Source: Bdellovibrionota bacterium (GTDB taxonomy: Bacteria; Bdellovibrionota_C; UBA2361). Taken from it: 64,000 nucleotides of DNA. The translations under genes and the position numbers were made by a program. The notes under the pieces were generated by a model, which ran no database searches, had not been told where the DNA came from, and saw only the letters and a list, made by a program, of their open reading frames with translations. Shown one piece after another: positions 29,301 to 54,528 of this stretch. Numbering within the stretch: position 1 is the first letter of the stretch; each line of letters begins with the position of its first letter. The stretch is from NCBI GenBank assembly GCA_044352465.1, contig JBILDU010000001.1:84211-148210 (forward strand). Reading direction: 5' to 3'.

Positions 29301-29672
29301 TTTGCGGTTCAATGGGAATACGGCGAGATCAAGGGTTTGAAATTGCGATTCGATGGGGGCCTCGAGATCGACCGTTACGGGGGGGGCTTCGGCTGGGATA
29401 AGGGTAAGCCGGGCCCCAGGGCGGTACGGCATGCCGATGTCACGTGCCGCGGTATGGGCGCGTACGATTCCAGCGAGGGTTGTGTGATCGGCGAGGCCGA
29501 GCGCGGCATAGCCCAATTCTGCAGCGGTGGCGACGTATTCTTCCGGGTGGCTCGCACCACGTAGGAAAGAGAAGTTCGTCGTTATCAGAAACTCGGCGTA
29601 GCTCGGTCGTTTCGGCGCGCGCCGCACGGGGAGGATCGGAGGTTTTATCTTATCGTAGGGCTTATCGGGCAT
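26358..29672 (-). CDS. dnaE2: error-prone DNA polymerase III alpha subunit
   Basis: 1104 aa. N-terminal PHP domain begins PSYAEFLITTNFSFLRGASHPEE, typical of DnaE2/ImuC. Sits downstream of imuA-imuB. Confidence 0.88.
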   Translation of the reverse strand: MPDKPYDKIKPPILPVRRAPKRPSYAEFLITTNFSFLRGASHPEEYVATAAELGYAALGLADHTTLAGIVRAHTAARDIGMPYRPGARLTLIPAEAPPVTVDLEAPIESQFQTLDLAVFPLNRKGYGNLCSLLTLGKTRLPGARCLLTTTDFLNYHQGLAVIVIPPPLPTVRDSSAPPLDIVPIVGALLNAATDRAVWSMALTKNYDFFCPRALEMTRATATTLTLPLIATNDPYYHSRARRPLHDVLTAIRAGCTVHTAGFKLFPNGERYLKPVEEMERLFRDDRPALHRTLELTEMTAGFSLDELRYEYPTEICPAGHDVHTYLTTKTWGGAEERYPNGIPPKVEQAIREELHLIKDLQYEKYFLTCHDIVRFARSRGILCQGRGAAANSVVCFCLGITSVDPATIDLLFARFVSKERNEPPDIDIDFEHERREEVIQYIYSKYGRNRAGLTCAVITYRYRSAIREVGKALGLSLEIVDKLAKLVHRWTDCIIAAEDLKALGLDPDDTTIQNAIRLSHELLGFPRHLSQHVGGFIISQEPLSETVPIRNSGMADRTIIEWDKDDIDALGMLKIDVLALGMLTCIRKALELVNNRRQEENKASLQLHSIPQNDSSVYDMICRADTVGVFQIESRAQMSMLPRLRPRCFYDLVIEVAIVRPGPIHGNMVHPYLKRRSGKEKVHFPDEQVKAILGKTLGVPLFQEQAMRLAIVLADFSPGEAEKLRRAMAAWKRNKEVITTFKQKIVAGMTRNGYSVEFAETCMEQIKGFSEYGFPESHAASFAHLVYASAWIKHHYPAEFAAALLNSQPMGFYAPAQIVRDAQEHGVCVREADIAYSGWDARLEEDETSKRPAVRLGLRLFKGLPHREAELLVSSYERHPASKTIEEFWLAVTSDYSESSERPYRSTLQTLARGDAFSSFGLNRREALWAIKALPEIPLPVDRATLPYQNNTPAKAFLPTTTAQQEMFADYAASGLSLKGHPIGFIRHELTKRNVFTAGALKKLTRLPRERTVSVAGVAIIRQRPGTAKGVVFITLEDETGITNLIIRPDVFEKYRRIVLSSSCLLATGILERIGEVIYINTFALESIDDLIAGRAQEGQSYSY

Positions 29673-29707
29673 AGGTAGTTAGCAGAGAATAGAGTGAGAA
29701 AAAATTC

Positions 29708-31363
29708 TCATACCCACACCCCGTGGACGAACCATTCGTGGGTGTGGTTATTCCGAAATACCCAGAGCCACGCTCCGTTTTCGGTCTGAACTTTAAAGTA
29801 ATCGCGCTCTTCCGCGGGGAGAGCGACATCCCCATGCCACCATTCCGGAGCGATCCGCTCTGGTCCGGTACCGTAGGTAATCTTTCCTCCACTGTGTCGC
29901 CAATCGATCCAGGAGGGCGGTTTGTCGGGGAGCATCGCGATAACTTTAGCTCGCTCAGGAGGCGAAAGAAGGTGCGGTGGTCGATCGACAATGAGGCTTT
30001 TGGTGGGGGCGCTCGGGAGCGGTTTCTTGCCGTCCGCGCGGATCGGCTCGAACGAAAAGCTGCGCTCGGGGATGTACGATGGGTGAAAAACCGCTCGCCG
30101 TACCCGCTCCTCTCCAAGTCCTACGACGAAGGTGTTCAACAGTTCGTTCCGCGCCCCTTCAATAATCGTCGTTTCGGGATCATCAAAGAAATCGTTTTGG
30201 GTATGGAGCGCCCGCTCGATATTATCGGCGGCAACGACGATGAGTTCCGCCCCCTCTTCAAACCGCATCGCTTCGATAGTCGGTGTGACGATAGAAGCGA
30301 GGTGGGAAAACTTTGTGGTGCTGCTGGTCAGGTGGATAGTTCGAAGGAGCGTCTTCTTGGTGCGCTCAAGGGAGCGTCCCTCGAGATAGACAAAAAAAGT
30401 ACGCGCTGTGTAACCACTCGTAGCGAGCCGCTTCAGAAGTTTTTCGATAAGTTTTATAATCGCGCGTGTCAGAGCGGCGTGGTGAGTCAGTGGGACATCG
30501 AAGTGTGCTGTCGTTCGAAAAATAGTCGGCAGAGGGAGTGCTCGCAGCGATTCTTCAACCCGGCCGAGTGCTTGATCGAGGCGGTTGAGAAGAAGGTGTC
30601 CGAAGCGAACGGTGAGGGTACGCGCGGGGATCTTTAAGAGTTCGCCGATTCGGGTTACTCCGACTTCATGGAGCGCTGTGCGTGTCGTGAGAGGGAGTCG
30701 TAACGCTTCAATCGGTAGAAGCGCGAGTGAGGTGCGTAGACTCGCTGTGTCGTTCACCTGCACGAGCGATTGCCCACCAAATCGTGCGAGTGCCCACGCC
30801 CCCCCGAGGGTAGGTGCGACTGCAGTGAATGCTGTGACTCCGCTGTGCGTGAAGCGATGCAGTAGTTTCCTTAAGAGCTCCTCAGTTTCGCCGTGGAGCC
30901 GCTCAGTGCCGGTAAGGTCAACGATGACTCCCCAGCGGAGGGAATCGGCGAAAAGATCGCTTTCGCGCCCCGTTTTCTTTGTTTCGAGGATCGGTGAGTG
31001 CAGTTCGGGGTCGAGCCCGACCAGGGGACTTAATCGCCCCATCCACCGGGCGATTTCAGTGAGGGCTTTGACGTCATCGCGAGGATGAAACGGGTGCACG
31101 ACGATCGCCGGGAGAAGCGCGCGCGCGAGGGCGAGATCCATCCCGGTCTGCACCCCAGCGCGGGCGCACTCCGTGCAGAACCGTTTGACGACGACGTGAT
31201 TCGCGTCGCTTGAGACGAGGGCGTATGGACCGGGGCGCTCAGGCGCGGCGCCGGTCTCGCGCGCTCTCTCCCGAAGTCGACGACGTGCTACGTCGATCGG
31301 CCACAGAGGGAGATAGATGGAGAGGTACGTTTTGGTCGTCATCGCTGCCGCACAGCTCCACAC
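29708..31363 (-). CDS. imuB: ImuB, Y-family-polymerase-like mutagenesis protein
   Basis: 551 aa. N-terminal YLSIYLPLWPIDV... matches the catalytically inactive UmuC/DinB-like fold. The likely start is the internal Met at 31342, which would reduce the imuA overlap. Confidence 0.7.
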   Translation of the reverse strand: MWSCAAAMTTKTYLSIYLPLWPIDVARRRLRERARETGAAPERPGPYALVSSDANHVVVKRFCTECARAGVQTGMDLALARALLPAIVVHPFHPRDDVKALTEIARWMGRLSPLVGLDPELHSPILETKKTGRESDLFADSLRWGVIVDLTGTERLHGETEELLRKLLHRFTHSGVTAFTAVAPTLGGAWALARFGGQSLVQVNDTASLRTSLALLPIEALRLPLTTRTALHEVGVTRIGELLKIPARTLTVRFGHLLLNRLDQALGRVEESLRALPLPTIFRTTAHFDVPLTHHAALTRAIIKLIEKLLKRLATSGYTARTFFVYLEGRSLERTKKTLLRTIHLTSSTTKFSHLASIVTPTIEAMRFEEGAELIVVAADNIERALHTQNDFFDDPETTIIEGARNELLNTFVVGLGEERVRRAVFHPSYIPERSFSFEPIRADGKKPLPSAPTKSLIVDRPPHLLSPPERAKVIAMLPDKPPSWIDWRHSGGKITYGTGPERIAPEWWHGDVALPAEERDYFKVQTENGAWLWVFRNNHTHEWFVHGVWV

Positions 31364-39532: not shown

Positions 39533-39954
39533 TTGTTTGGTAGCGAGGCGGCGAACTCCTCCTTGCCGAGCTGTCCGGTTGGATGAGCTTGATATCGCGC
39601 AGCGCGCGCATTCTATTCTCTGTAGCAGCCCTCGGAAGCTCAACGATAGCCCGTGAGGGGAAAGGGTTCCTATGTGACACCCTGCTTGCGTGTCGATAGC
39701 CGATAACAAAAATCAGCTTTCGTCGTATGGTTTCTCTTCATAGCCATTAAAGTTTGTATGTTCGCGGCGAAGGGGGGTCTGGGGCGGTGACTGGAATCCG
39801 TATCTCAAGCTCTACGGGGTCACGGGTGAATAAAGACCGTACTCTGGTCGGCTATGGGCGCATCAACGCCCCGTCTCTCTTAGGTATTAGCGAGGAATCC
39901 CTTTGTCCTCGTTTTCTGGAAAATAACTCTCCGGTGTGCTAAGGTCGGCGCAGA

Positions 39955-40050
39955 ACCTTGGGGGTGTCGGTGGGCAAGAAAGGCTCAGCCGGCTGAGATT
40001 ATACCCTTTGAACCTGACGCGGGTAATGCCGCCGCAGGAAAGAGGCGTCG
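39955..40050 (+). promoter_or_regulatory. TPP (thiamine pyrophosphate) riboswitch
   Basis: Contains the conserved THI-box elements GGGGTG..., CTGAGA, TACCCTTTGAACCTGA and GGTAATGCC...GGAA. Sits directly upstream of thiS-thiC. Confidence 0.9.
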
Positions 40051-40127
40051 CGGCGTGACTTATTCGAGTCCCTTCGCACTCATGCGTGAGTATCTGCTCA
40101 CACCCTCCCCGCAAGTTTGGGGTTTCG

Positions 40128-42254
<2,127 letters not shown>

Positions 42255-42255
<1 letters not shown>

Positions 42256-42875
42256 TGGAGCTTCCGTTTGAGATAGTTGTTATCTCTCCACCGGAGAGCG
42301 GCTCCTTTGAGGGGGAGATTGTGAACGATCTATTTCAGGCGGGGCTCACCCGTTTTTATCTTCGGAAAGGAGGGGCTTCCAAAGCCGAGCTTTCGGAATA
42401 CCTCCGCCGAATCACCCCCCGATTTTATGACCGAGTGGTGGTGGGGAGCCACTTTGAGCTCGTCGACGATTTTGGGCTCGGAGGTGCACACCTACCGACC
42501 GAGGCGCGGCTGCATCAGGAGACCTTTAGCCGATGGGCGGGGCGGCGAGCGGAGAAGGGAATGCGGCTGAGCACCTCGGTTCACTCGGTGAGTGAGCTTG
42601 AGGCGTTGGGAGCGAACTTCGATTTCACGTTTCTCTCGCCCGTTTTTGGGAGCCTTTCTAAGGATCTTCCGCGGGGAGCATTTAGCGAGGCTGAGCTTCG
42701 ACGTGCGACGACAGCGGGGCTGAATCTGGTCTACGCGCTGGGCGGCATCAATCCGGGGACGATCGCGGAGGCGCGAGTGCTTGGGTTTAAGGGGTGCGGG
42801 GTTATCGGGAGCGTTTGGAGCGCATCCGATCCGGTGGGGGCGTTTAAGGAACTACAAAAGGAGGCGGGCGTATGA
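42255..42875 (+). CDS. ThiE/TenI-family protein (second thiamine-phosphate-synthase-like paralog)
   Basis: TMP-TENI fold (HFELVDDFGLGGAHLP, LSPVFGS, ALGGINPGT). It diverges from the canonical ThiE at 43700. Confidence 0.6.
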
Positions 42876-43693
42876 GTGTGGTCTCGAAACTCGAACGTCC
42901 GGTAGCGCTGACGATCGCCGGGCTCGATCCGAGCGGTGGAGCAGGGATACTCGCCGATATCAAGACCTTCGAGCAGTGTGGAGTATACGGCTTTGGGGCG
43001 GCAAGTGCTCTGACTTACCAAAGTGATGTCGAGTTTCGGGGGCTCACCTGGCTCTCCTTCGAGGAGATTGCGCGGCAACTAACCCCCCTCTTTGCTCGGT
43101 TTCAGGTGGGTTACGCTAAAATCGGGATCGTCGAGGATCTGGCGACACTCGAACAGGTTATGGATCTCCTCCTTGACCATAAGCCGGATATGAGGATTGT
43201 GTGGGATCCGATCCTCGCCGCGAGCGCGGGGTATGCATTTCACCAAGCATGGGACTTAGCGGCCGTGAAACGGATCGCGAAGCGGTGCGCGGTTATCACC
43301 CCTAATTATGACGAGATGCTGGGGATTCTCCCCGGCAGGTCTGCGCGGGAGGGGGCTGAGCAGCTGAGCGCTCTTGTGCCGGTGCTTTTAAAAGGGGGGC
43401 ACGCGCCCGGTGAGGTAGTAGTCGATACTTTGTGTATGCAGGGGGAGTGCTACGAGTACCGGACGCCACGACTTCCTGAGGCCCTGGGCGTGTCGGGTAA
43501 GCACGGCTCGGGGTGTGTGCTTGCCGCAGCGATCACGGCAGCACTGGCGCGAAGTGAGGAGCTTCCAGCGGCGTGTGAGCACGGTCGAGTGTATACGCAG
43601 CGATTCCTACGGAGTGGCGCGACTCGGCTCGGATTTCACACCGGGATGGGCCCGACGATGAGTAGCACTTTTTTTCACGGCGCGAAGGAGTAG
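42872..43693 (+). CDS. thiD: hydroxymethylpyrimidine/phosphomethylpyrimidine kinase
   Basis: Motif LTIAGLDPSGGAGILADIKTF and the conserved C-terminal kinase region. Confidence 0.85.
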   Translation: MSVVSKLERPVALTIAGLDPSGGAGILADIKTFEQCGVYGFGAASALTYQSDVEFRGLTWLSFEEIARQLTPLFARFQVGYAKIGIVEDLATLEQVMDLLLDHKPDMRIVWDPILAASAGYAFHQAWDLAAVKRIAKRCAVITPNYDEMLGILPGRSAREGAEQLSALVPVLLKGGHAPGEVVVDTLCMQGECYEYRTPRLPEALGVSGKHGSGCVLAAAITAALARSEELPAACEHGRVYTQRFLRSGATRLGFHTGMGPTMSSTFFHGAKE

Positions 43694-43699
43694 CAGCCG

Positions 43700-44341
43700 A
43701 TGAGAACGATCGAACCGGTGCAATTTATCACCCCCGATAGACCGAGTGATTACCACGTCAGCTACGTCGAAAAGGCGTGTTGGGGCGGCGTTCGGTGGGT
43801 ACAGCTTCGGGTGAAGGGGCGGGATTTTCATGAGTGGTGCGCACTTGCCCTCGAGGTGAAGGGCGTGTGTCGAAATTACGGTGCAGTCTTTATCGTGAAC
43901 GACTCGGCTGAGGTCGCAGCGGCAGTAGATGCCGATGGGGTGCATGTGGGGGAGAACGATACGCCACCTGAAAGGGCGCGTGAGATCGTGGGGCCCGGTA
44001 AGATAATTGGAGCTACGGCGAATACGCTCGAAGTGGCCCGTCGTCACGTCGAGGCAGGGGTCGATTACCTCGGTGTGGGGCCGTATCGGTATACGGATAC
44101 CAAAGCGAACTTAAGCCCTGTGCTCGGCTGCGCAGGGGTGCGAGATCTCTGCCAGGGGCTTCGAGACCGCGGGGCTTTGACTCCGGTGGTCGTTGTCGGA
44201 GGGGTTACCCCGACCGATATTTCGGAGATTCGGGCGGCGGGGGCGCACGGTGTTGCGGTCAGCGGGGCTATCTCAGCGGCTCAGGATAAGATGGCGGCGG
44301 CTCGAAGTTTCGTCGAGCAGTTTTATGGAGTAACGGCATGA
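43700..44341 (+). CDS. thiE: thiamine-phosphate synthase
   Basis: Motifs [27 protein letters not shown] and [13 protein letters not shown]. Confidence 0.8.
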
Positions 44342-45108
44342 CGGTGGCGTTAGAGATCGGCGGAAAGAAGCTCGCCTCGAGGCTTTTTCTGGGTACCGGA
44401 AAATTCAGCTCGGCCGCAGTGATGCGTGAAGCGGTCGCGGCGTCTGCAAGCGAGCTTGTGACGGTGGCGCTCAAGCGGGTGAACGTTCGAGCGGAAATAG
44501 ACTCCATGATCGAGCACTTAAACCTTCCGGGGGTAAATCTTCTTCCGAATACCTCGGGGGTTCGTACGGCGAAGGAAGCTGTTTTGGCGGCACATCTTGC
44601 CCGCGAGGCGCTGGAGACGAATTGGCTTAAACTTGAGATCCATCCTGATCCTCAGTATCTCCTCCCCGATCCAATTGAGACGCTCCTTGCGTGTGAGGAA
44701 TTAGCAAAAGACGGCTTTATTATCTTGCCCTATGTCAACGCGGATCCGGTGCTGTGCAAGCGGCTCGAGGAGGCGGGGGCTGCAGCGGTGATGCCGCTCG
44801 GCGCTCCTATCGGGAGTAACCAAGGGCTTCAAACGAAAGCGATGCTCGAGATCATCATCGCCCAGAGTAACGTTCCGGTGGTTATCGATGCGGGGCTGGG
44901 AGCCCCCTCCCATGCGGCGGCGGCGCTTGAGATGGGAGCGGCCGCGGTGCTCGTGAACACCGCGATCGCGGTGGCGGGTGATCCGGTTGAGATGGCCCGG
45001 GCATTTCGTGAGGCGACGGTGGCGGGGCAGCGCGCACGAGAGGCCAGTCTGGCGCGGCCAGAGGTGCGGGCTGTGGCATCGAGTCCTTTGACAGCGTTCT
45101 TAGATTAG
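44338..45108 (+). CDS. thiG: thiazole synthase
   Basis: Motifs [20 protein letters not shown] and [21 protein letters not shown]. Confidence 0.9.
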
Positions 45109-45113
45109 TACGT

Positions 45114-46256
45114 ATGAGTTTTGAGAACGTTCTCGAGACATATCGGTGGGAGGAGATAACGGCACAGATAGATGCCGCCTCGTCCCGTGATGTTGAGCGT
45201 GCCCTTCAAGCGACGGGACGTCGATCGTTTGAGGATTTTCTCGCGCTGGTTTCTCCCGCAGCGCGCAACTATCTTCCCCTTATGGCGGAGGAGAGCCAGC
45301 GAGTCACCCAACGGCGATTCGGAAAAACGATTCAGCTCTATGCACCGATGTATCTCTCTAACGAGTGCCAGAATATCTGCACCTACTGTGGGTTTTCCTT
45401 TCATAACAAAATCGCCCGAAAGACCCTGATAGATGAGGAGATCCTCCGCGAAGTCGGAGTGATAAAGTCATACGGGTATGACCATATCCTGCTCGTCTCG
45501 GGCGAAGCCCAAAAAACGGTGGGGAGCGATTACTTTGAAAACGCGGTTCGGCTTATACGGCCGCACTTTAGCCACATCTCGCTTGAGGTACAGCCGCTGG
45601 AGGAAGTGGAGTATCGGCGGCTTATGGAGGCGGGTGTCCAGACGGTGCTCGTCTATCAGGAGACCTACAACCGGGAGCGCTATAAGAGCTATCACCCGAA
45701 GGGTAAGAAATCGAACTTCTCGTATCGGCTTGATACGCCGGAGCGGCTCGGGCGAGCGGGGATATATAAAATAGGGCTCGGCGCGCTTTTGGGGCTTGAG
45801 GAGTGGCGGACCGATACGGCGTGTGTCGCACTCCACCTTGCATATCTCCGGAAGAAATTTTGGCGCACAAAGTTTTCGCTCTCTTTCCCGCGGCTTCGCC
45901 CCGCGGAGGGGTATCTTGAACCGAACGTCGTGATGACCGATCGGGACCTTGTGCAGCTTATCTGTGCATTTCGGCTTTTTGATGAGAACGTGGAACTTTC
46001 GCTTTCTACGCGGGAGAGCCCGAAGTTTCGGGATAATGTGGTGCAGCTTGGGGTGACCTCGATGAGCGCCGGCTCAAAGACCGAGCCCGGTGGGTATTCA
46101 CAACCCCACGCAGCGCTCTCCCAATTTGAGATAAGCGACGAGCGAACGCCCGCAGAGGTCGCTCAGATGATCGCGGCGCAAGGCTATGAGCCGGTATGGA
46201 AGGATTGGGATCCTGTGCTTGAGGGGGGAGCTTCCCCCAATAATGGGGCGCTCTGA
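45114..46256 (+). CDS. thiH: 2-iminoacetate synthase (radical SAM tyrosine lyase)
   Basis: Radical-SAM CxxxCxxC within NICTYCGFS and the ThiH-specific C-terminal domain. Confidence 0.85.
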   Translation: MSFENVLETYRWEEITAQIDAASSRDVERALQATGRRSFEDFLALVSPAARNYLPLMAEESQRVTQRRFGKTIQLYAPMYLSNECQNICTYCGFSFHNKIARKTLIDEEILREVGVIKSYGYDHILLVSGEAQKTVGSDYFENAVRLIRPHFSHISLEVQPLEEVEYRRLMEAGVQTVLVYQETYNRERYKSYHPKGKKSNFSYRLDTPERLGRAGIYKIGLGALLGLEEWRTDTACVALHLAYLRKKFWRTKFSLSFPRLRPAEGYLEPNVVMTDRDLVQLICAFRLFDENVELSLSTRESPKFRDNVVQLGVTSMSAGSKTEPGGYSQPHAALSQFEISDERTPAEVAQMIAAQGYEPVWKDWDPVLEGGASPNNGAL

Positions 46257-47377
46257 TGTCCGTTGACCGCGAACGGTTTAGCCGCCAGATAATGCTCCCC
46301 GAGTTCGGAGAGGTTGGGCAGCGCCGTCTTTTAGACGCGAGCGTCCTTGTTGTTGGCGCGGGCGGACTTGGAAGCCCGGTGCTCCTGTACCTTGCGGCAG
46401 CGGGTGTTGGACGGATCGGGATTGTTGATGGCGATACGGTGGCGGTGCATAACCTCCACCGTCAGGTGCTCTTTCATGATAACGATATTGGGAGCAAAAA
46501 GGCGGAGTGTGCCGCACGGGAGGTCTCAGCCATTTTCCCCGGTGGTCGGGTCGATATCGTTTCAGCTCCGTTAACACCAGAGAACGCGCGCGAGGTGGTT
46601 GCCCCGTACGATCTTCTGGTCGACGGGACCGATAATTTCTCCACCCGGTATCTCGTCAATGACGTCTGCGTTGAGCTTCAAAAGCCGTGGGTATCGGGAG
46701 CTGTGTTTAGATTTTCAGGGCAGGTAACGGTTTTTAACGTGCTCCAAAAAAACGGTGCACGGGGTCCCACCTATCGGTGCCTGTTTCCCGAGCCCCCGGC
46801 ACCGGAGAAGGTGCCGGGATGTGGAGAGAGCGGTGTCCTCGGCGTTGTCCCTGGTGTCGTGGGCACCGTCATGGCGTCTGAGGCTGTAAAGCTCCTCGCT
46901 GGGATCGGTGATGTTCTCTCGGGGAAGCTCTGGACCTTCGATGCGCTTACCAATGCGAGCCGAACGGTCGAGTTTGAGCGAGAGGACGCCGCTGGTGCTG
47001 CCCGAGTGAAGAGTGCTGAAGAGTATCGATATCTGTGTGGAGTAAAGACGGAGGCAACAATGAAAGAGATTACCCCGAGGGAGCTTAAAGCGAAGCTCGA
47101 TGCGAAAGAGGATTTTACCCTTATCGATGTGCGCGAACCATTTGAGCGGGATATCGCTACGATCGGTGGAGTTTCGATTCCCCTGGCTGAGGTCGTAAAT
47201 CGGGCAGGAGAGATACCCAAAGATAAACCGGTGGTGATCTATTGCCGTAGCGGCGGGCGAAGTGGCCGCGCATGCGCTGAGCTTGAACAGCGGTTTCAGT
47301 TTAAAAATCTTATTAACCTTGCAGGTGGAATCCTACGGTGGAGCGACGATGTCGATCCGGCGGTGAAAAAATATTGA
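46256..47377 (+). CDS. thiF: ThiF/MoeZ-type E1-like adenylyltransferase fused to a C-terminal rhodanese domain
   Basis: Nucleotide-binding motif VLVVGAGGLGSP. C-terminal rhodanese active-site IYCRSGGRSGRA. Start overlaps the thiH stop (TGATG). Confidence 0.8.
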   Translation: MSVDRERFSRQIMLPEFGEVGQRRLLDASVLVVGAGGLGSPVLLYLAAAGVGRIGIVDGDTVAVHNLHRQVLFHDNDIGSKKAECAAREVSAIFPGGRVDIVSAPLTPENAREVVAPYDLLVDGTDNFSTRYLVNDVCVELQKPWVSGAVFRFSGQVTVFNVLQKNGARGPTYRCLFPEPPAPEKVPGCGESGVLGVVPGVVGTVMASEAVKLLAGIGDVLSGKLWTFDALTNASRTVEFEREDAAGAARVKSAEEYRYLCGVKTEATMKEITPRELKAKLDAKEDFTLIDVREPFERDIATIGGVSIPLAEVVNRAGEIPKDKPVVIYCRSGGRSGRACAELEQRFQFKNLINLAGGILRWSDDVDPAVKKY

Positions 47378-47617: not shown

Positions 47618-47986
47618 TCACCGATGCGAAATCGACATCCCGTGTGCCCCGCGCCTGAGTGCGATAAAGACTCCCCGCGTGTCCAACCACGAGGCAGTAC
47701 CGGGCGTTGGGGCTCTCGACAACAGCAATTCATATGCTTTGAGGAATGCGGCGATAGCAGCTCGGTCGGTGTCGCCGCAGGTGAGCGCAAAACACCGTCG
47801 ATTCCCTCGCCTGGTCTCTGTGAGAAGCCCCGCTTCCAAGAGCCGGCGAAGGATGTCCGAGACCCCGGAGGGGGAGAGCTTATACTCATGAGCTAGGGCC
47901 CGTAGATGCCGGGGCTCGGGAGCGTAGGAAGTCGACAAGGGAAGCGGGCATACAAATAATGTCCGATTTATCGAACAGTATGGCAA
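47618..47986 (-). CDS. hypothetical small protein, possible winged-helix
   Basis: 122 aa. The segment SPSGVSDILRRLLEAGLLTETRRG looks HTH-like. The assignment is weak, and the long minus-strand ORF here may be chance. Confidence 0.25.
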   Translation of the reverse strand: MPYCSINRTLFVCPLPLSTSYAPEPRHLRALAHEYKLSPSGVSDILRRLLEAGLLTETRRGNRRCFALTCGDTDRAAIAAFLKAYELLLSRAPTPGTASWLDTRGVFIALRRGAHGMSISHR

Positions 47987-48301
47987 GGATGCGAACGGCG
48001 CTCTGACCCGAGCTGGTCGTCGCTCATAGAGTCAACGGTGCAAAAAGAGCGAGCTTTGACTCGACATGAGAGAAATCACTCCGATATGGACACACGGAGT
48101 ATGGTTACTCAATGAATTGATCGCTATCTCTGCGTGGGCCGGCGTGGATGCTTTAGTGGCTGGTAGGCATGAACTGCAGACAGTCGACGCCACAACCAAA
48201 ACGAGAATGGTCGGTGAAATAGAGAGATCAAGATTTCCAGAACAAAACCTTCAACAAACGAGAGCAGTCACAACAAGAGGGATCACCACCTCTCACCGAG
48301 G

Positions 48302-48340
48302 GCACCGGGGTTCGACGTATCGCTACGTGAACCCCGGTGC
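48302..48340 (-). terminator. 39-nt near-perfect extended hairpin immediately 3' of csrA
   Basis: Sequence GCACCGGGGTTCGACGTATCGCTACGTGAACCCCGGTGC has a 12-bp GC-rich stem. The loop region is itself palindromic. Confidence 0.45.
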
Positions 48341-48366
48341 GTGGTGAGTCCTCCAGCCGGTATCGC

Positions 48367-48711
48367 TCAGTGGATACCGGGGAAGTTCGATTGACTTCCC
48401 ACGATCGCCGCACGGAGAACCGGATTGGTGGATGTGGGGGTCCTCCCAATCAGCTCGTTGCGGATGATGGGGATCTCGATGGGAGCGTTCACGAGAACCA
48501 TGACCTTCTTGGGATGAATCTCGGCGATCCCGATCGAGATTTCCGCGAACATGAACGTGTCGCCGGCGCCGACAGTTGTCTCGATGTGGAAACCCCTGGG
48601 CTCCTTCGTCTTGACGATGCTGATGCGAGCGAATCTCGTTCCGACCGATAGGATCTTCAGCGTGTACTCTCCGATGAAAATCTTCTCCCCCGTCCGACGC
48701 GTAAGCTTCAT
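48367..48711 (-). CDS. csrA: CsrA-family RNA-binding protein, atypical single-chain tandem (pseudo-dimeric) form
   Basis: GGAGG RBS then ATG (MKLTRRTGEKIFIGE...). The protein is about 114 aa. Residues 1-38 resemble CsrA strands beta1-beta4. Residues ~50-104 (FHIETTVGAGDTFMFAEISIGIAEIHPKKVMVLVNAPIEIPIIRNELI) resemble a second CsrA copy that includes the VNAP...R.E motif. Confidence 0.6.
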   Translation of the reverse strand: MKLTRRTGEKIFIGEYTLKILSVGTRFARISIVKTKEPRGFHIETTVGAGDTFMFAEISIGIAEIHPKKVMVLVNAPIEIPIIRNELIGRTPTSTNPVLRAAIVGSQSNFPGIH

Positions 48712-49086
48712 ACGAACCTCCATGTCTGAACCACCTTCGCCTCTGTCACATCGTGTGGCAGAATCCATGCGAAAGTTCGCTCGGCGCTGAGGCCCTCTCG
48801 ACCTTAACAGCGAACGAACTCCCCCATGGAGCGAAACCCTTCTACCCAGAAATCTTGACCATGCAATTTTAAGCGTAATGATTCCGCTAAGCAAATCGGG
48901 TGGATGGGTGATTTTATTCGAGCTATTTGACTAAGTTTACCTCAGCTCGTACTCTCGTTTCCGTTGGACTGAAATGGGTAGCGTAGGTCCACGTTTGATT
49001 CCTCTCGGCGAGTGGGTTGCCCCCCACCCAAGCCTTGGTGAAATCGTTGAAACCGAAGGTAACTTCGGCTCGATTCGTCATGTGTT

Positions 49087-52000
49087 TTGGAGTGGTGCAT
49101 GTTCGGCAACGCGTTCGGCAGTCAGAGCTCTCCGGTAAATCTCCACGGTATCGAATTATCTTTCTTGAAAGGTGCGTGGTGCTCCAGCTTCGCTGTGTTT
49201 TTCGGTCTCTTTTTTAGTGGGGCTGTCGAGGCCTCCCCCCCCATCTCTGGTACCCCAACAGCGCCGAGCTGCAGCAGTGCTGGGTTTGATCTCGCGCGGC
49301 GATATTGCTGTTGTAAGCCCCGTCATATCGGGTTTGCGGTAGCTGAAAATCTCCTAGCGGAAGGGGTTTTTTCAGAGGCGACTACGCTCGCACCTCCGAG
49401 AGGTGTGTCGAAACCGATCGCGTTTCTATGCCGGAATGCCAATCCGTGGGAGAGCCCCACAGCGCCGCTCAATCCAGCGACAAGCGCGTCATCGTTGAAT
49501 GCTGCCGGAGCGCTCTGCCGTTGCGATCCAGCAACCGCTAATCGCTACTGTGATGGGCCGACTCCTACTCCCACGCCGTCGCCAACCCCAACACGAACGC
49601 CGACACCGACGCCGACAAGCACCCCGACGCCCACCCCCACACCAATAGTGACTCTCTCTCCATCGCCCGAACCGGAGGTGACCGTGACCCCACCGCCGGT
49701 GGTGACTATCGATCCTGGAAATGATCAAAGCCCCAATTGCGAGATATCGGGGCGTGTTCCGACGCCGCTCCCACGGCCGGCTCTTCGCCTCACGGAGCGC
49801 AGGCTCCGGGCGTGGAGCGATGTAGGAAACCGCTCGGACATCGAGTCGTCCGCAGAGCCGGAACGCTCAGCAGTCGAGGAATGGGGAGCTTGGGGGGGGC
49901 CGGGACGGGTCGTGATGGTTGGGCGGTACGATAGTAACTATAACGGGCTGCCCGACTTTTTAGACGGGATAGAGGGAATTGAGAGCCTCGATCGGATCCG
50001 ACAACAGAATGGCATTCCGCGCAGCTCGACGAGCCGTCACTTCGTGATGATCGAGGTTGAGATCGAGGGGGGAGCACCGGCAGCCTACTACGTGCCGGAT
50101 CGGATGGCGCCGGGTGGGGAGCGGATTGAGTCGCCGAGCTTACGCATCGACTACAGTGGTTCGCCCCTTCTCCCGGACCCAATCGGGTGTCCTTTTTTTC
50201 GGGGGCTTCAGGCCGCGTGGGGGTCCTCGGGTGTGACGTGGGGGGGGTACGATGAGCGTGTTGCCTCGACCCTCGCAGACTGTGGACTATCCTCCGGTGG
50301 TTGGCGGGTTTGGACTAAAAACGGACAGTATCTTCGAGATGCGCGCTCAGTCCCCGCTGGTGGAGATTACGTCCCCTCAGGGATCGAGATCCCTCTCCAC
50401 AATCTTGATACCTCGGGGAATCGGGTCCGATTTTACGTTGAAGCTACCCCGCTGGGAGAGTTAGCTCGCGATTTCGATATCACGCTTCGTTATGGGCGAG
50501 TGATATCGGGAGACACGTTACCGCGGGAGTCGGTATCACACGAGCGGGTTAGCCTTCTACCGGTGGATCTTATCTATCAGGATGCGCGGACACACGGGCC
50601 GATCTGGGTCTCGCCTGAAGACGGATCCCGCGACCCTGAGGGTGAGGTGAGACTAGCACTCGACCGAACTTTCGCGCCGCGACTCCCGGCCCTCTCACCG
50701 TCATGGAGCGCTATCGATGCCGATTCGGGTGCATTCCTCGTTCAAGGAGCGCTTACCGATGGAGCTTCGCTTATCAGTATCGCGCTGCAAGAGCGTTTGG
50801 AGGGGCGTTACCAAGGGGGGGGCAATCCACTTCGCCGTTACGCAACTTGGGCGGATGACAATGGGAACCAGCACTGTTACACCCCGTTTGAAGATAATGT
50901 TTTCCTTGGTATTCGCCGTAAGGGTGGTCCGCTTCAAGGCGAGGAGCAGCCGGCTAATCTGCCGAATGTGTACGGTGGCTTCCATCCGCCGATCGGACCA
51001 CATGGGGAGCTTAATCTCTTACCAAGGATGCCGATGCCGAGCGACTCCGCGACCGCAGAGGAGTGGGGATACTCGACGAGGATCAATCTGGGGAGTGGTA
51101 TCCGACCCCAACGGTACCCCGTTTTGAATGCGATCGGGGGATATTACCTCCCACCCAATAACTTTATCTCGGGTCTCGCGCCGGGTGATAACGACTCTCG
51201 ATACGGTGGTGGTTCGATCGTGCTTGAGCGCTCGGTCAATCAACCGGAGGAGGTTGCGCCGATGGAAGTGGTGCTCTACCGACGGGTAGGGAGCCGAGTC
51301 GTTGTATTAGAGGTTCAGCCGTTCTATCTTCGGCGGCCTCCGGTGGTGTTGGTGCACGGCATGAACGGTGATGGTCGGGATTACTGGCCGTGGGATCTGT
51401 GGGCCGAGCGTAATCCCACGCATCTAGACGGCTTACCAACCCGGATCTATCGCGCTGACTACAGTTTCTCGGCAGGGCTCGGCTATACCGAGAATTTTAC
51501 CGCGGTGCCAAAAGCGATTCAGCAAGCGCTTGTGGAGTACCGTTGGGCTTACGACAACACCTTTGTTCCACCCCCTGATGCAACCGGACCTGTTGAGCCT
51601 CCCTTCGATCCGCCGGCGGTGATGCCCCATCCTTCTTTCGGATTTTATGGGGACTCACACCGGGTCTATGCGTGGCACCGACCGGAGCGTGCGTTTAAGG
51701 GGATCAACTACGCAGCCACCCGGGTTGATGTTGTAGCCCATAGTATGGGGGGACAACTGGTTCGCACCTATGTCTCGAATCTTGGTGATAACACCGGTAT
51801 GACCGGTGTAACACGTGCCCATCCCGATACCCGCCGAAAGCCGAGAGGGGCTGTGGATTTCTCGATGCCGGCAGCGTTAATCCCAGGCACCGGAGTGCCT
51901 GGCATTCCGGCGCGGTTCCAGAACCTACGACTGCAGATCCCACCGCGGATTGACCGAAGCGGGGATAGTTGGACTTTCTGGTACGCCGCGGATCTTGAGG

Positions 52001-53013
52001 CCTCTCGGTTGCAGATACCGAAGTATCAGCGAAGTTTTAACTATGGAACCGGAGATATTCGGCGGTTTATTCCGATCGGCTCGCCTTTTAAAGGTGCTCC
52101 CGCTGCGTGGATCACTGAGCGGGCCTACTCACCATCTCAAAGAACTTTTTGGAATACTATTCTAAGCCAGTACGGTGGCTCTTCGGCAGCCGCTCAGTGG
52201 CTCAAAGATAACAATTTGGTAGATCGGAGGTCGAGTTTTCCGCTCTATCCGACCTGCCATGCCGATCTTGTGCCGGGCAGTCGGATCCAATCTCTTCTTG
52301 AGGAGGAAAACCGGTATCCAGAGGGCCGCTATAGCGTGAGTTGGTCGCCGATCGTTGGACAAGCTATGCGTCATCACGCGATCGAGTTGTCTCGACTAGG
52401 GATGTCCGCGTTTGTTGTTGAACGGTGCGATCCATTCTGTGTCCAGCCATGGGAAGTTGCGTGGCAGCAGCTCATGACGTCGATCTATGGAACTCCGGAT
52501 ATCAGCGAAAGTTGGTATCCCAACGGTACCCATGACGATATGGTCGTGCCGGGCTTTTCCCAACGCAATGCTGGGATCGGCAGCCGGCTTGTACGGACAT
52601 ATGAGTATGGGGATTACGAAGACCAAGGTGGCAGGCGGATCATCGTCGATGAATGGGATACGATCTTCCCCCAGGTTAGTGCGGATTCAGAGTGGATCAC
52701 CGGCTCGCGCGAGTACCCAAATTCCGGGCTCGGTACTACCGTTGTGGAGCTACCCCATAGTCGGTCCCGTGTCATGCAACTACGGCTGTTAAGCGATCTT
52801 CAACAGATACTTGGTCTTGAGAGCATGTTCTCTTCGGATCTCCTCGAGGCCCAAAACGGTGGGCGGTTCACCCCGAATGGGTGGGACTATCGCGAGAGTT
52901 CCCTCTTGAGGATGGTTCTCGAAACGCTCCGTGGCGCCGAGGGATTACCGACCAACGTCGCGGACTCATCTGCTGGCCCAGCCGGCATGAGTCGTAATTC
53001 ACTAGGACGGTAA
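49087..53013 (+). CDS. giant secreted protein with a Pro/Thr linker and a lipase class-2 (Lipase_2/PGAP1-like) alpha/beta-hydrolase domain
   Basis: 1308 aa. Signal peptide ...FAVFFGLFFSGAVEA. PTPTPTPSPTPT linker (residues ~155-200). Lipase_2-type motifs PVVLVHGMNGDG and VDVVAHSMGGQLVRTYV (GxSxG), then candidate Asp/His in CHADLVPGS and GTHDDMVVPG. A possible alternative TTG start lies near 49165. Confidence 0.7.
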   Translation: MEWCMFGNAFGSQSSPVNLHGIELSFLKGAWCSSFAVFFGLFFSGAVEASPPISGTPTAPSCSSAGFDLARRYCCCKPRHIGFAVAENLLAEGVFSEATTLAPPRGVSKPIAFLCRNANPWESPTAPLNPATSASSLNAAGALCRCDPATANRYCDGPTPTPTPSPTPTRTPTPTPTSTPTPTPTPIVTLSPSPEPEVTVTPPPVVTIDPGNDQSPNCEISGRVPTPLPRPALRLTERRLRAWSDVGNRSDIESSAEPERSAVEEWGAWGGPGRVVMVGRYDSNYNGLPDFLDGIEGIESLDRIRQQNGIPRSSTSRHFVMIEVEIEGGAPAAYYVPDRMAPGGERIESPSLRIDYSGSPLLPDPIGCPFFRGLQAAWGSSGVTWGGYDERVASTLADCGLSSGGWRVWTKNGQYLRDARSVPAGGDYVPSGIEIPLHNLDTSGNRVRFYVEATPLGELARDFDITLRYGRVISGDTLPRESVSHERVSLLPVDLIYQDARTHGPIWVSPEDGSRDPEGEVRLALDRTFAPRLPALSPSWSAIDADSGAFLVQGALTDGASLISIALQERLEGRYQGGGNPLRRYATWADDNGNQHCYTPFEDNVFLGIRRKGGPLQGEEQPANLPNVYGGFHPPIGPHGELNLLPRMPMPSDSATAEEWGYSTRINLGSGIRPQRYPVLNAIGGYYLPPNNFISGLAPGDNDSRYGGGSIVLERSVNQPEEVAPMEVVLYRRVGSRVVVLEVQPFYLRRPPVVLVHGMNGDGRDYWPWDLWAERNPTHLDGLPTRIYRADYSFSAGLGYTENFTAVPKAIQQALVEYRWAYDNTFVPPPDATGPVEPPFDPPAVMPHPSFGFYGDSHRVYAWHRPERAFKGINYAATRVDVVAHSMGGQLVRTYVSNLGDNTGMTGVTRAHPDTRRKPRGAVDFSMPAALIPGTGVPGIPARFQNLRLQIPPRIDRSGDSWTFWYAADLEASRLQIPKYQRSFNYGTGDIRRFIPIGSPFKGAPAAWITERAYSPSQRTFWNTILSQYGGSSAAAQWLKDNNLVDRRSSFPLYPTCHADLVPGSRIQSLLEEENRYPEGRYSVSWSPIVGQAMRHHAIELSRLGMSAFVVERCDPFCVQPWEVAWQQLMTSIYGTPDISESWYPNGTHDDMVVPGFSQRNAGIGSRLVRTYEYGDYEDQGGRRIIVDEWDTIFPQVSADSEWITGSREYPNSGLGTTVVELPHSRSRVMQLRLLSDLQQILGLESMFSSDLLEAQNGGRFTPNGWDYRESSLLRMVLETLRGAEGLPTNVADSSAGPAGMSRNSLGR

Positions 53014-53028
53014 TAAGCGAGGGGTTGT

Positions 53029-54528
53029 ATGAGGAACGACACTGTTACGAAAGCAGCTTTATTCGCCGCGGGCGGTACGACCTTGGCCTCGTTGGGATTC
53101 GGTGCGTTTCATGAACGGAGCGTCCATGGCCCAGACTTCACCGCGAATCATGAGGCCTATCCGAGGAGCGTAACAACGCACGGTGAGCCGATAGCTCGCT
53201 CCCGTACCTCGCCCGGCGCCTTGGGACTCACGATGGCGGGGGTTGCGGGTATCGAGCGACTCTACGGCGACCGGTCGGAGTTGGCTCAGGAGCTCATCGC
53301 GACGACAACCCTGCAGGGTAAGATCGGTGCGACGTTGGCGCGGCTGAAACGGGCCTACAGCGAGGGAATAGAGCGAGGGGACCGTACCGGTGTCATTGAG
53401 GAGACGCAACGACTGGAGCGATTAGTTTCGACCCTCGACCGGACCGTGCTTGCGATACCACTCGACCCCAGTGGTGATAGAGCAAAGACGGTGGGAAGTG
53501 CGTTACAAGGGGTAGTCGTGCCATCTCCGTCAACGCCGAACTGGCACGATCTGATAGTGAGCTGTGAGAAGATCGAAGCGCGGCTACTCCCCCATGGGAG
53601 TCCCGATGTGGGGCTCTCTATCGATAGCACACTGTCGAATCTGAGAGATCAGCTCGGGATGTTAACACGCCCAGACTATTTACCGAGTGATAACAAAACT
53701 GCGCCGAGTAGTATGAGTATGTATGCTGCGGTACGGCTCGGGAACTCGGTGCCCGGTATCTCGACCGTACGATGGCTTATCTTGCCCCATGCGACGGTGG
53801 CGCAAGAGCTGCAGGGGCTCATGCGCCAACTGGGTGCTGATCGCGAGCTCCTGGTGAGATGGTCTAAAGATAGTAGCCAATTTGCATCGATGTGGGGGGA
53901 GCTATCCCCGATCGGGCGAGAGTATGTGTCTGTTCAATCGCTCGCGCTCGCTGACGGAACCAAAGCGCCGACTCGCGTCACCGTGGTCTCACCCGACGAG
54001 CGGTATCTGCTTGAGGCAGGCAAGGAATACGCCCGCACTCGGGAGGACTTATTTCGAGCCTATCGAGAACTTATGAACCCGGCCGATGGAGGATTCGCCG
54101 ATAATGAATTCGATGTACAGCACGTCGTTGAGCGGGCGTCGAAGCTGCGGGATGACTTCGTCCGGTCTCTCCCGAAGACCTCAACCCGATACCTCGAACA
54201 GTTATCGATGGCCATCACCGCTCAAGATCGCGAGGCGTGTCTGACCGGAGCGAATACGTTAATGACTGAGACATTCCCCGAGGGGCCGATGGTGAGAGCT
54301 GAGATCGAATCAGCCCGTGAAACTCTCGCAGCGGTCATCACAGCGCTCGAAGGAGACACAGCGAAGGGAGCTCCTATCGCGATCGGACTGGCGAGCACCA
54401 TCACGTGGGCGAGGCAATGCCTCGATCCCGCCGCTGAGAATTCGTTTTCTGCGGTGAAGTCCGGCACAGTTGAGCGGAGTCTCGAACTCGCCCGAGATGC
54501 GACGATGCGGAGCTTCATTCGGCCGTGA
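53029..54528 (+). CDS. hypothetical helical protein encoded 16 nt downstream of the lipase-domain gene
   Basis: 499 aa. N-terminal hydrophobic anchor KAALFAAGGTTLASLGFGAF. The rest is predicted helical and Ala/Leu/Arg/Glu-rich. No motif recognised. Confidence 0.5.
   Translation: MRNDTVTKAALFAAGGTTLASLGFGAFHERSVHGPDFTANHEAYPRSVTTHGEPIARSRTSPGALGLTMAGVAGIERLYGDRSELAQELIATTTLQGKIGATLARLKRAYSEGIERGDRTGVIEETQRLERLVSTLDRTVLAIPLDPSGDRAKTVGSALQGVVVPSPSTPNWHDLIVSCEKIEARLLPHGSPDVGLSIDSTLSNLRDQLGMLTRPDYLPSDNKTAPSSMSMYAAVRLGNSVPGISTVRWLILPHATVAQELQGLMRQLGADRELLVRWSKDSSQFASMWGELSPIGREYVSVQSLALADGTKAPTRVTVVSPDERYLLEAGKEYARTREDLFRAYRELMNPADGGFADNEFDVQHVVERASKLRDDFVRSLPKTSTRYLEQLSMAITAQDREACLTGANTLMTETFPEGPMVRAEIESARETLAAVITALEGDTAKGAPIAIGLASTITWARQCLDPAAENSFSAVKSGTVERSLELARDATMRSFIRP

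Follow-up and report, generated by a model that had tools for sequence, protein, structure and literature searches.

The stretch of DNA analysed here (the window, 64,000 nucleotides of a Bdellovibrionota bacterium contig) carries on its minus strand, at 48367-48711, a gene for a long-form CsrA-like protein. CsrA is a global regulator, a symmetric homodimer whose two RNA pockets bridge paired GGA sites. An earlier reading of the same sequence (the original prediction) placed here an open reading frame (ORF) of about 114 amino acids (aa) and took it for two degenerate CsrA halves in tandem. The ORF was found as described: the coding sequence (CDS) specifies 114 aa and a stop codon, and is preceded by a GGAGG ribosome-binding site. 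The protein sequence is MKLTRRTGEKIFIGEYTLKILSVGTRFARISIVKTKEPRGFHIETTVGAGDTFMFAEISIGIAEIHPKKVMVLVNAPIEIPIIRNELIGRTPTSTNPVLRAAIVGSQSNFPGIH (MKLTRRTGEK...FPGIH), and the gene is divided as follows; strands of the second unit are primed, and AlphaFold2 (AF2) refers to the structure prediction described below.

48367..48711, minus strand: long-form CsrA-like CDS, 114 aa and stop
48717..48721, minus strand: Shine-Dalgarno (SD) sequence GGAGG, overlapping a CAUGGA motif (GGA at 48719-48721)
48610..48711, minus strand: N-terminal CsrA unit, aa 1-34, with β1 (KLTRR), β2, β3 and β4, without β5 and without the helix
48589..48609, minus strand: connector, aa 35-41 (KTKEPRG), leading from β4 to β1', no secondary structure in the AF2 model
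48442..48588, minus strand: C-terminal CsrA unit, aa 42-90, with β1' (HIETTV, no Arg), β2'-β4', VNAP, and β5' with R84 and E86
48370..48441, minus strand: C-terminal tail, aa 91-114, ending FPGIH-COOH, low AF2 confidence

The ATG at 48711 is placed 5 nt downstream of GGAGG. The mechanical ORF runs further upstream, as far as a TTG at 48894. An upstream start that would alter the reading was looked for among the homologues, and none was conserved. At locus L096 there is an in-frame stop 12 codons upstream of the start with no start codon in between, at L095 the sole in-frame start upstream is a GTG at −13, and the reading frame of the leader is shifted between groups by small indels. Because upstream in-frame starts are not conserved in the homologues, the ATG at 48711 is a sound start as judged by comparison of the sequences. 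The leader as an N-terminal coding extension was ruled out, neither its frame nor an ATG being conserved. The identical protein sequence was present on 12 metagenome contigs (from samples in ENA, JGI and Logan, with lengths of up to 620 kb), and the gene is therefore no assembly artefact.

Two CsrA units and one predicted RNA pocket in a single chain

The protein scored 35.5 bits with the Pfam CsrA profile (PF02599; gathering cutoff 27), a value reached only when two partial stretches are added together. Residues 2-32 matched profile positions 3-34 and residues 57-88 matched positions 17-48, with β3-β4 covered twice. CsrA chains of the Protein Data Bank (PDB) likewise matched in two pieces, and with the chains of entry 5Z38 the one named 'Truncated-CsrA' matched the N part and the one named 'wild type CsrA' matched the C part. 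Profile-profile comparisons (hhalign) were performed with a canonical profile made from 104 canonical CsrAs. Residues 1-38 of the window subfamily (8 members) aligned with canonical residues 2-39 at a probability of 97% and an E value of 1.3e-10. The segment of aa 39-75, cut on purpose ahead of NAP and β5' and controlled by 60 column shuffles, aligned through its aa 45-74 with canonical residues 4-34 (93%, E 3.1e-7, score 34.6; shuffle maximum 17.7), in a register in which T46-V47-G48 face canonical T5-R6-R7. When the alignment of all 28 long forms was used, the N and C halves matched each other with an E value of 3.4e-11 (shuffle maximum 18.3; reversed-sequence score 10.9). The two copies are 34-46% identical in sister long forms; an example is P0030, in which MLILTRRIGEAIYIGDNIAVIISGIKGNMIRIRTASP is followed by a second copy, and in homologous long forms MLILTRR... 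is followed by ELLVVTRK...

The sole NAP...R.E motif of the protein lies in the second unit. The chain contains two CsrA-homologous units, of which the first is cut off ahead of β5, and on these alignments the gene is a partial tandem duplication of CsrA, β1-β4 followed by β1'-β5'. The original prediction holds in this respect, each half aligning separately to canonical CsrA. Its reading of the motifs also agrees with ours: the N half has an LTRR-type β1 and ends ahead of the NAP/REE region, and the C half contains VNAPIEIPIIRNE and a β1' devoid of Arg (IETTVG). The connector between the units is variable in length and sequence across the long forms (7 aa here, 4-5 aa in the Marinomonas type).

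In the CsrA dimer, each antiparallel five-stranded sheet consists of β2-β4 of one subunit and β1 and β5 of the other (PMC7652899), and the RNA pocket is a patch of β1', β4 and β5 (PMC5864733). AF2 with the 28-long-form alignment gave a model of the window protein with a predicted local distance difference test (pLDDT) value of 84.7 and a predicted template modeling (TM) score of 0.71; pLDDT was about 95 over aa 1-80. Strands were predicted at aa 2-5, 10-13, 16-23 and 28-34 in the N unit and at aa 42-47, 52-55, 58-66, 69-75 and 82-84 in the C unit, nine in total in one chain, and no confident helix followed β5'. A canonical chain has about 60-75 aa, five strands and a helix, whereas 114 aa, nine predicted strands and one β5 were found here. 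According to the model, one chain should carry nine of the ten strands of a CsrA dimer, one sheet being five-stranded and the other four-stranded. Single-chain phage proteins of 81-114 aa in BFVD have the same fold (TM score up to 0.84, root-mean-square deviation 1.8 Å), and one of them is named 'Carbon storage regulator'.

Residues L3, R5, A76, R84 and E86 were invariant over the 28 long forms, G14 and P77 were nearly so, and position 6 was R or K in 25 of the 28. The conserved residues correspond to L4, R6, A36, P37, R44 and E46 of E. coli CsrA, and they sit on β1 of the N unit and on β4'/β5' of the C unit, which make up exactly one canonical pocket. The RNA-contact residues (equivalents of L4, R6 and R7 and of R44 and E46) are thus present as one set only. 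The second, symmetry-related pocket is without them: no β5 follows the N unit, and β1' has no arginines. At the Arg positions of β1' the window subfamily has V, A, W or S, and R or K is kept in some other long forms. Both the conservation pattern and the nine-strand model support the earlier suggestion that only one complete RNA-binding surface would be present.

The substitution pattern was uneven along the chain. Between the window protein and its closest relative (P0002, 85% identical), 10 of the 17 substitutions fell in aa 39-57, and the ratio of nonsynonymous to synonymous polymorphism (pN/pS) was about 1.0 in aa 35-57 (48541-48609) against about 0.3 in both aa 1-34 and aa 58-90, all from small numbers. 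The same trend was seen in two further pairs. From these substitution ratios, the degenerate second pocket (connector and β1'-β2') is apparently evolving near-neutrally.

The tail ends in FPGIH (aa 110-114; 48370-48384). PGIH is found in all eight subfamily members (as PGMH in L096) and the preceding Phe in six of the eight, although members are as little as 27% identical. The codons change synonymously (TTC/TTT, CCC/CCT, GGT/GGG/GGC, ATC/ATT), so that selection must act on the peptide itself, and the motif is more than a by-product of the RNA hairpin at the stop codon. Binding of a partner is one possible role; another would be to fill the edge at which a strand is missing.

Structure and conservation of the mRNA

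Seven divergent loci were aligned for the comparison of untranslated regions (UTRs) and CDS. The elements are given in the order of transcription.

48866..48894, minus strand: sigma-70-like promoter, −35 TTGCTT (48889-48894), 17-nt spacer, −10 TAAAAT (48866-48871); both hexamers and their spacing kept in 7 loci
48712..48860, minus strand: structured 5' UTR, from RNAalifold and pair counts
48846..48859, minus strand: 5' arm of the terminal helix, GUCAAGAUUUCUGG, starting at the predicted transcription start
48830-48836 with 48735-48741, minus strand: enclosing stem in the 5' UTR
48765-48829, minus strand: long covarying hairpin in the 5' UTR
48764-48766, minus strand: GGA in the 5' UTR
48742-48762, minus strand: small near-invariant hairpin in the 5' UTR, UCUGCCACACGAUGUGACAGA
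48358..48381, minus strand: hairpin CCGGUAUC/GAUACCGG, whose loop contains the stop codon, kept in part of the subfamily only
48302..48340, minus strand: 39-nt hairpin of the 3' UTR with a GNRA tetraloop as its cap (GCGA in the window, GAAA in L090)
48227..48240, minus strand: 3' arm of the terminal helix, CUGGAAAUCUUGAU, at which the conservation of more distant homologues stops

The promoter predicts a transcription start at about 48859. The consensus structure of the 5' UTR comprised 50 pairs; 96% of the cells were paired, and compensatory changes occurred in 9 pairs. Values as high were reached in none of 500 shuffles, and no slid control came near them. The terminal helix has 14 bp, with all 84 cells paired (100%, G-U included) and 2 compensatory pairs, and the differences between its arms are all G-U-compatible on the sense strand only. 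When the entire 643-nt transcript was folded (z = −6.5), the minimum-energy structure likewise contained the helix. A 39-nt hairpin directly 3' of the gene had been noticed in the original prediction; it was located at 48302-48340, where it begins 26 nt past the stop codon within a 116-nt stretch of z = −6.75, and it is conserved in the 7 loci with compensatory changes.

Among the 7 loci, identity was 75-99% in the 5' UTR, 67-100% in the last 18 nt of the CDS and 36-74% in the CDS core, and 46-95% in the 3' UTR, where comparison with the three most divergent loci gave about 50%. Outside the unit, which extends from the promoter to CUGGAAAUCUUGAU, the sequences of the 7 loci are unrelated. Between the window and L092, the leader showed 100% identity (over 100 nt or more) and the 3' UTR 94%, at a protein identity of 44% and with different codons used even for conserved residues. 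Between the window and L090, ThiF, ThiH and ThiG were 75, 87 and 88% identical in aa sequence, and the CsrA-like proteins 27%. A 14-nt core, CCACACGATGTGAC, was present at 15 of 15 subfamily loci and at none of 80 unrelated ThiC loci. No family was matched by the UTR element in a search of Rfam, and exact-pattern scans for the conserved leader gave no match in metagenome and viral contig collections. The leader contains two CA(U/A)GGA motifs, one of which overlaps the SD sequence. CsrA binds GGA motifs located in hairpin loops or SD regions and represses translation.

Three types of mobile or hypervariable element were considered for the unit and rejected. A transposon, or a miniature inverted-repeat transposable element with terminal inverted repeats, does not fit arm differences that are G-U-compatible on the sense strand only, nor a 5' arm located at the predicted transcription start. 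Mutagenesis of the kind driven by diversity-generating retroelements does not fit a CDS diverged to saturation at all bases, and an integron cassette does not fit a unit that has its own promoter and keeps thiF synteny in 2 of 6 loci.

Oligomeric state, RNA binding and alternative readings

The gene product would consist of a β1-β4 unit (aa 1-34), stripped of β5 and the helix, joined by a short turn to a β1'-β5' unit (aa 42-88). Supplying nine strands, such a chain would fold alone into a dimer-like core. Because β4 of the N unit and β1' adjoin in the sheet, a short linker suffices; β4 would run directly into β1', its sheet neighbour, as a hairpin, for which 4-8 residues are enough. The complete pocket would be formed by β1 of the N unit (L3, R5 and R6) and β4'/β5' of the C unit (A76, P77, R84 and E86). 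The protein would be a monovalent binder of GGA-motif RNA and a translational regulator, one molecule of which would be unable to bridge two sites. It is probable, in our judgement, that one chain of the protein, as a monomer, is equivalent to the core of the CsrA dimer and has one RNA pocket, that it binds GGA-type sites in a 1:1 manner without bridging, and that it is made from an autonomous, end-paired mRNA.

With canonical CsrA/RsmA (PF02599; PDB 1Y00, 2BTI and 2JPP) the protein shares the LTRR-type β1, the GxxxxIG turn, the NAP...R..E β5 with the equivalents of R44 and E46 and, presumably, the interleaved β-sandwich. Canonical CsrA is an obligate homodimer of chains of about 61-75 aa, with two identical pockets and a C-terminal helix, whereas the window protein has 114 aa, nine predicted strands, one pocket and the FPGIH tail. 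The same design is found in Re-CsrA (Ye et al. 2018; PDB 5Z38), in which CsrA 1-44, the linker GGGGSGGGGS and full CsrA were joined for a single ligand site (PMC5864733). Its crystal showed M1-P37 and M1-K55 ordered in a compact core with one intact ligand site, and Re-CsrA binds RNA and CesT via this one site (PMC5864733). Both proteins have a C-truncated first copy and a full second copy in one chain; nine strands and one site are seen in the Re-CsrA crystal and predicted for the window protein. Re-CsrA, however, is artificial and made of two identical E. coli sequences with a 10-residue Gly-Ser linker, whereas in the window protein the turn is short and native, the halves have diverged strongly and β1' is degenerate.

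The laboratory heterodimer HD-CsrA also has one functional RNA surface, although it is a two-chain construct. As the work of Mercante et al. 2009 is reported in PMC7652899, HD-CsrA, with one R44A pocket, did not fully repress glgC, and CsrA bridges sites 10-63 nt apart. Since full repression of glgC needs both pockets, weaker or qualitatively different regulation is predicted for a monovalent form. A precedent for topological rearrangement in the CsrA family is RsmN/RsmF of Pseudomonas aeruginosa (PDB 4KJI and 4K59), which matched the AF2 model weakly (TM scores 0.64-0.67, target-normalised). It differs in that its helix is moved between β2 and β3 and in that it is a two-site homodimer of short chains without duplication.

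Family surveys describe CsrA as homodimers of 65-75 aa and mention no tandem forms (PMC7366521; a 2026 survey of ~7500 homologues, PMC13443453), the phage CsrAs described to date are short forms (PMC7366521), and the literature searched gave no account of a natural CsrA in tandem or single-chain form. The window protein is a natural counterpart of the engineered single-chain CsrA, of a form that recurs in both bacteria and phages, and its RNA element is undescribed. How much CsrA depends on being bivalent has until now been studied only in engineered heterodimers and single-chain constructs. A single-pocket form maintained by evolution, in a freshwater Bdellovibrionota-like lineage as well as in phages and prophages, would allow the capacities and limits of a monovalent CsrA to be tested directly, and the partial duplication would show a route from an obligate intertwined dimer to a monomer.

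Several results weigh against the reading of the protein as a monomeric, single-pocket CsrA. With the NCBIfam equivalog models NF002469 and TIGR00202, a match to which would imply the function of E. coli CsrA, the protein scored 28.1 and 26.7 bits, below the respective cutoffs of 73 and 70.1. The N and C halves of the window protein are only 11% identical, and in the 8-member subfamily the comparison of N and C profiles was not significant (score 13.7; shuffles reached 19.0). With an alignment of only 5 close homologues the AF2 model was poor (pLDDT 58.9), a Foldseek search of the AF2 model against PDB chains gave nothing useful, and sheet topology and pocket make-up were taken from the literature. 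The overall ratio of nonsynonymous to synonymous substitution (dN/dS) is high (0.5-0.86). A short linker is also compatible with diabody-like or edge-to-edge dimers. With respect to RNA binding, L093 and L094 are without the GGA that overlaps the SD sequence, and L095 has GGG in place of the upstream one. GGA-mediated autoregulation is plausible on the motifs in the leader and is uncertain because neither leader GGA is universal among the homologues.

The structured mRNA bears on how the protein would act. The gene would be transcribed as its own unit and tightly regulated, and its mRNA would probably be very stable and paired at its ends. The structured RNA probably controls the expression of the gene, and the protein would be likely to act on it (autoregulation). 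The combination of an ultra-conserved RNA with a protein whose RNA-contact surface is conserved while its scaffold drifts fits a protein constrained mainly by recognition of that RNA. A tentative extension, which we hold to be possible though well short of probable, is that the whole is a self-contained ribonucleoprotein module. In this case the ~630-nt mRNA with panhandle UTRs would be a new RNA element, serving the monovalent CsrA as its cognate target or as an extra sensor of a ligand or protein, and the pseudo-site and FPGIH would engage a partner. Such a module, if real, would represent a new Csr regulatory logic, with 1:1 binding in place of bridging or sponging. The mRNA, with UTRs more conserved than its CDS, is a candidate new structured RNA.

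An alternative for the oligomeric state is that two chains pair, in a diabody-like manner or via the exposed β2' edge, to give a particle bivalent like CsrA and different from it in geometry. The short connector, the sheet edge without a fifth strand and the conserved FPGIH tail, which could mediate contacts, would all suit such pairing. On the other hand, β4 of CsrA adjoins β1 of the other subunit in antiparallel orientation, so that a tight hairpin is enough, AF2 folds the monomer with pLDDT of about 95 in all nine strands, and Re-CsrA acts as a single-site unit. We regard pairing of two chains as unlikely.

It is more doubtful still that the RNA is the main functional product, a structured regulatory or riboswitch-like RNA, and the ORF a fast-decaying or weakly functional CsrA paralogue. 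This would account for UTR conservation far above that of the CDS, for a protein only 27% identical where the neighbouring ThiF, ThiH and ThiG are 75-88% identical, for the high dN/dS, and for the GNRA loops, covarying helices and terminal helix. It is opposed by an ORF that is intact (101-119 aa) in all 8 divergent members, each of which has a purine-rich SD-like sequence (GGAGG, AAGGAG or GGGGG), by the invariance of the CsrA RNA-contact residues, by a pN/pS of about 0.3 in both binding units, and by the retention of the C-terminal motif through synonymous changes. A single CsrA domain with an unrelated inserted loop and normal dimerisation, with which the insignificant N-vs-C similarity within the subfamily and the absence of a CsrA match in a plain hmmsearch of the subfamily profile of aa 39-75 against PDB sequences would agree, is hardly credible and is rejected, because this segment aligns to canonical CsrA far above the shuffles and the homologous long forms have an unmistakable second copy, with copies 34-46% identical in sister forms.

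Distribution of the long forms and genomic surroundings

A survey of related genomes for the same long form had been suggested in the original prediction. An exhaustive profile search of 1.84 billion representatives gave 22 matches, mostly long forms of 85-117 aa, and a word-indexed search added further ones. The long forms occur in at least three settings. The window subfamily ends in PGIH and is chromosomal, and its samples include Lake Mendota. The Marinomonas-type long forms (100-114 aa; L008 6001-6306, L097, L098, P0142, P0143 and P0154) lie in prophages beside cI/Cro-like, Rha and integrase genes. The cultured Pseudomonas phage vsMR has an unannotated long-form ORF, MLILTRRRNDCLLIG...GKFGIDAPREVLVLREEL (L104 301-579; OR687460.1 22204-22482), and uncultured Caudovirales also carry long forms of the same architecture. 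Neither the window protein nor the alignment of its chromosomal subfamily had a match in phage (tblastn) and viral contig collections. The subfamily alignment had no match in the genome contig collection either.

The current annotation of CsrA as a homodimer of 65-75 aa hides the long forms, and at least one RefSeq record apparently calls the second copy only. The member from M. arenicola in RefSeq is annotated at 76 aa, about the length of the second copy plus tail; the annotation may have missed the first unit, or translation may begin at an internal start. In P0016 (143 aa), two full CsrA domains, each of the form LSRH...APxEIPVHRQEVY, follow one another as a complete tandem. Judged by its motifs, this protein would have two pockets in a covalent dimer and be a second kind of natural single-chain CsrA. 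In P0005 (207 aa), the last 80 residues correspond to the C unit and tail of a P0003-like long form and follow an unrelated N-terminal region with a signal-peptide-like start; a chimeric contig or a frameshift in the gene call is the probable cause.

The 64-kb window is housekeeping DNA, with glycyl-tRNA synthetase (GlyRS), men genes, imuB/dnaE2, a thiamine pyrophosphate (TPP) riboswitch with a thiamine operon, and feoB. Named relatives of the GlyRS, 73-75% identical, are from Bdellovibrionales, Deltaproteobacteria or Pseudomonadota metagenome-assembled genomes and point only loosely to Bdellovibrionota or 'Deltaproteobacteria'-type bacteria; ThiC, at 72-77% identity to proteins of many phyla, was uninformative. 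As to dedicated antagonists of CsrA (a sponge RNA of the CsrB/RsmZ type or FliW), families of Csr/Rsm small RNAs had no match in the 64 kb, and FliW and flagellar genes were absent from the window ORFs scanned. The TPP riboswitch (39950-40058, plus strand, 59.4 bits) lies ahead of the thiamine operon (40324-47377, plus strand), whose genes are in the order thiC, thiE-like, thiD, thiE, thiG, thiH and thiF-rhodanese and which converges on the CsrA-like gene. The same synteny of thiamine operon and CsrA-like gene is seen at L090, despite CsrA-like proteins that are 27% identical.

Part of the gap of about 990 bp from thiF to the CsrA-like gene is filled by a 122-aa ORF (47618-47986, minus strand), which is winged-helix-like with a weak match to a Pfam winged helix-turn-helix family (E 9e-4) and is absent from the public gene calls of the same contigs. 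At the corresponding position the other subfamily loci have different sequence. In the region 49087-54528 (plus strand), transcribed divergently from the CsrA-like gene, lies the gene for a 1308-aa protein with no Pfam match, which contains a linker rich in Pro and Thr and, as AHSMGG, a GxSxG motif like that of alpha/beta-hydrolases; the next gene specifies a 499-aa protein of unassigned function. Further away, the region 26358-31363 (minus strand) encodes the error-prone polymerase DnaE2 (1104 aa) adjoining an ImuB/DinB-like gene, which together form a mutasome cassette.

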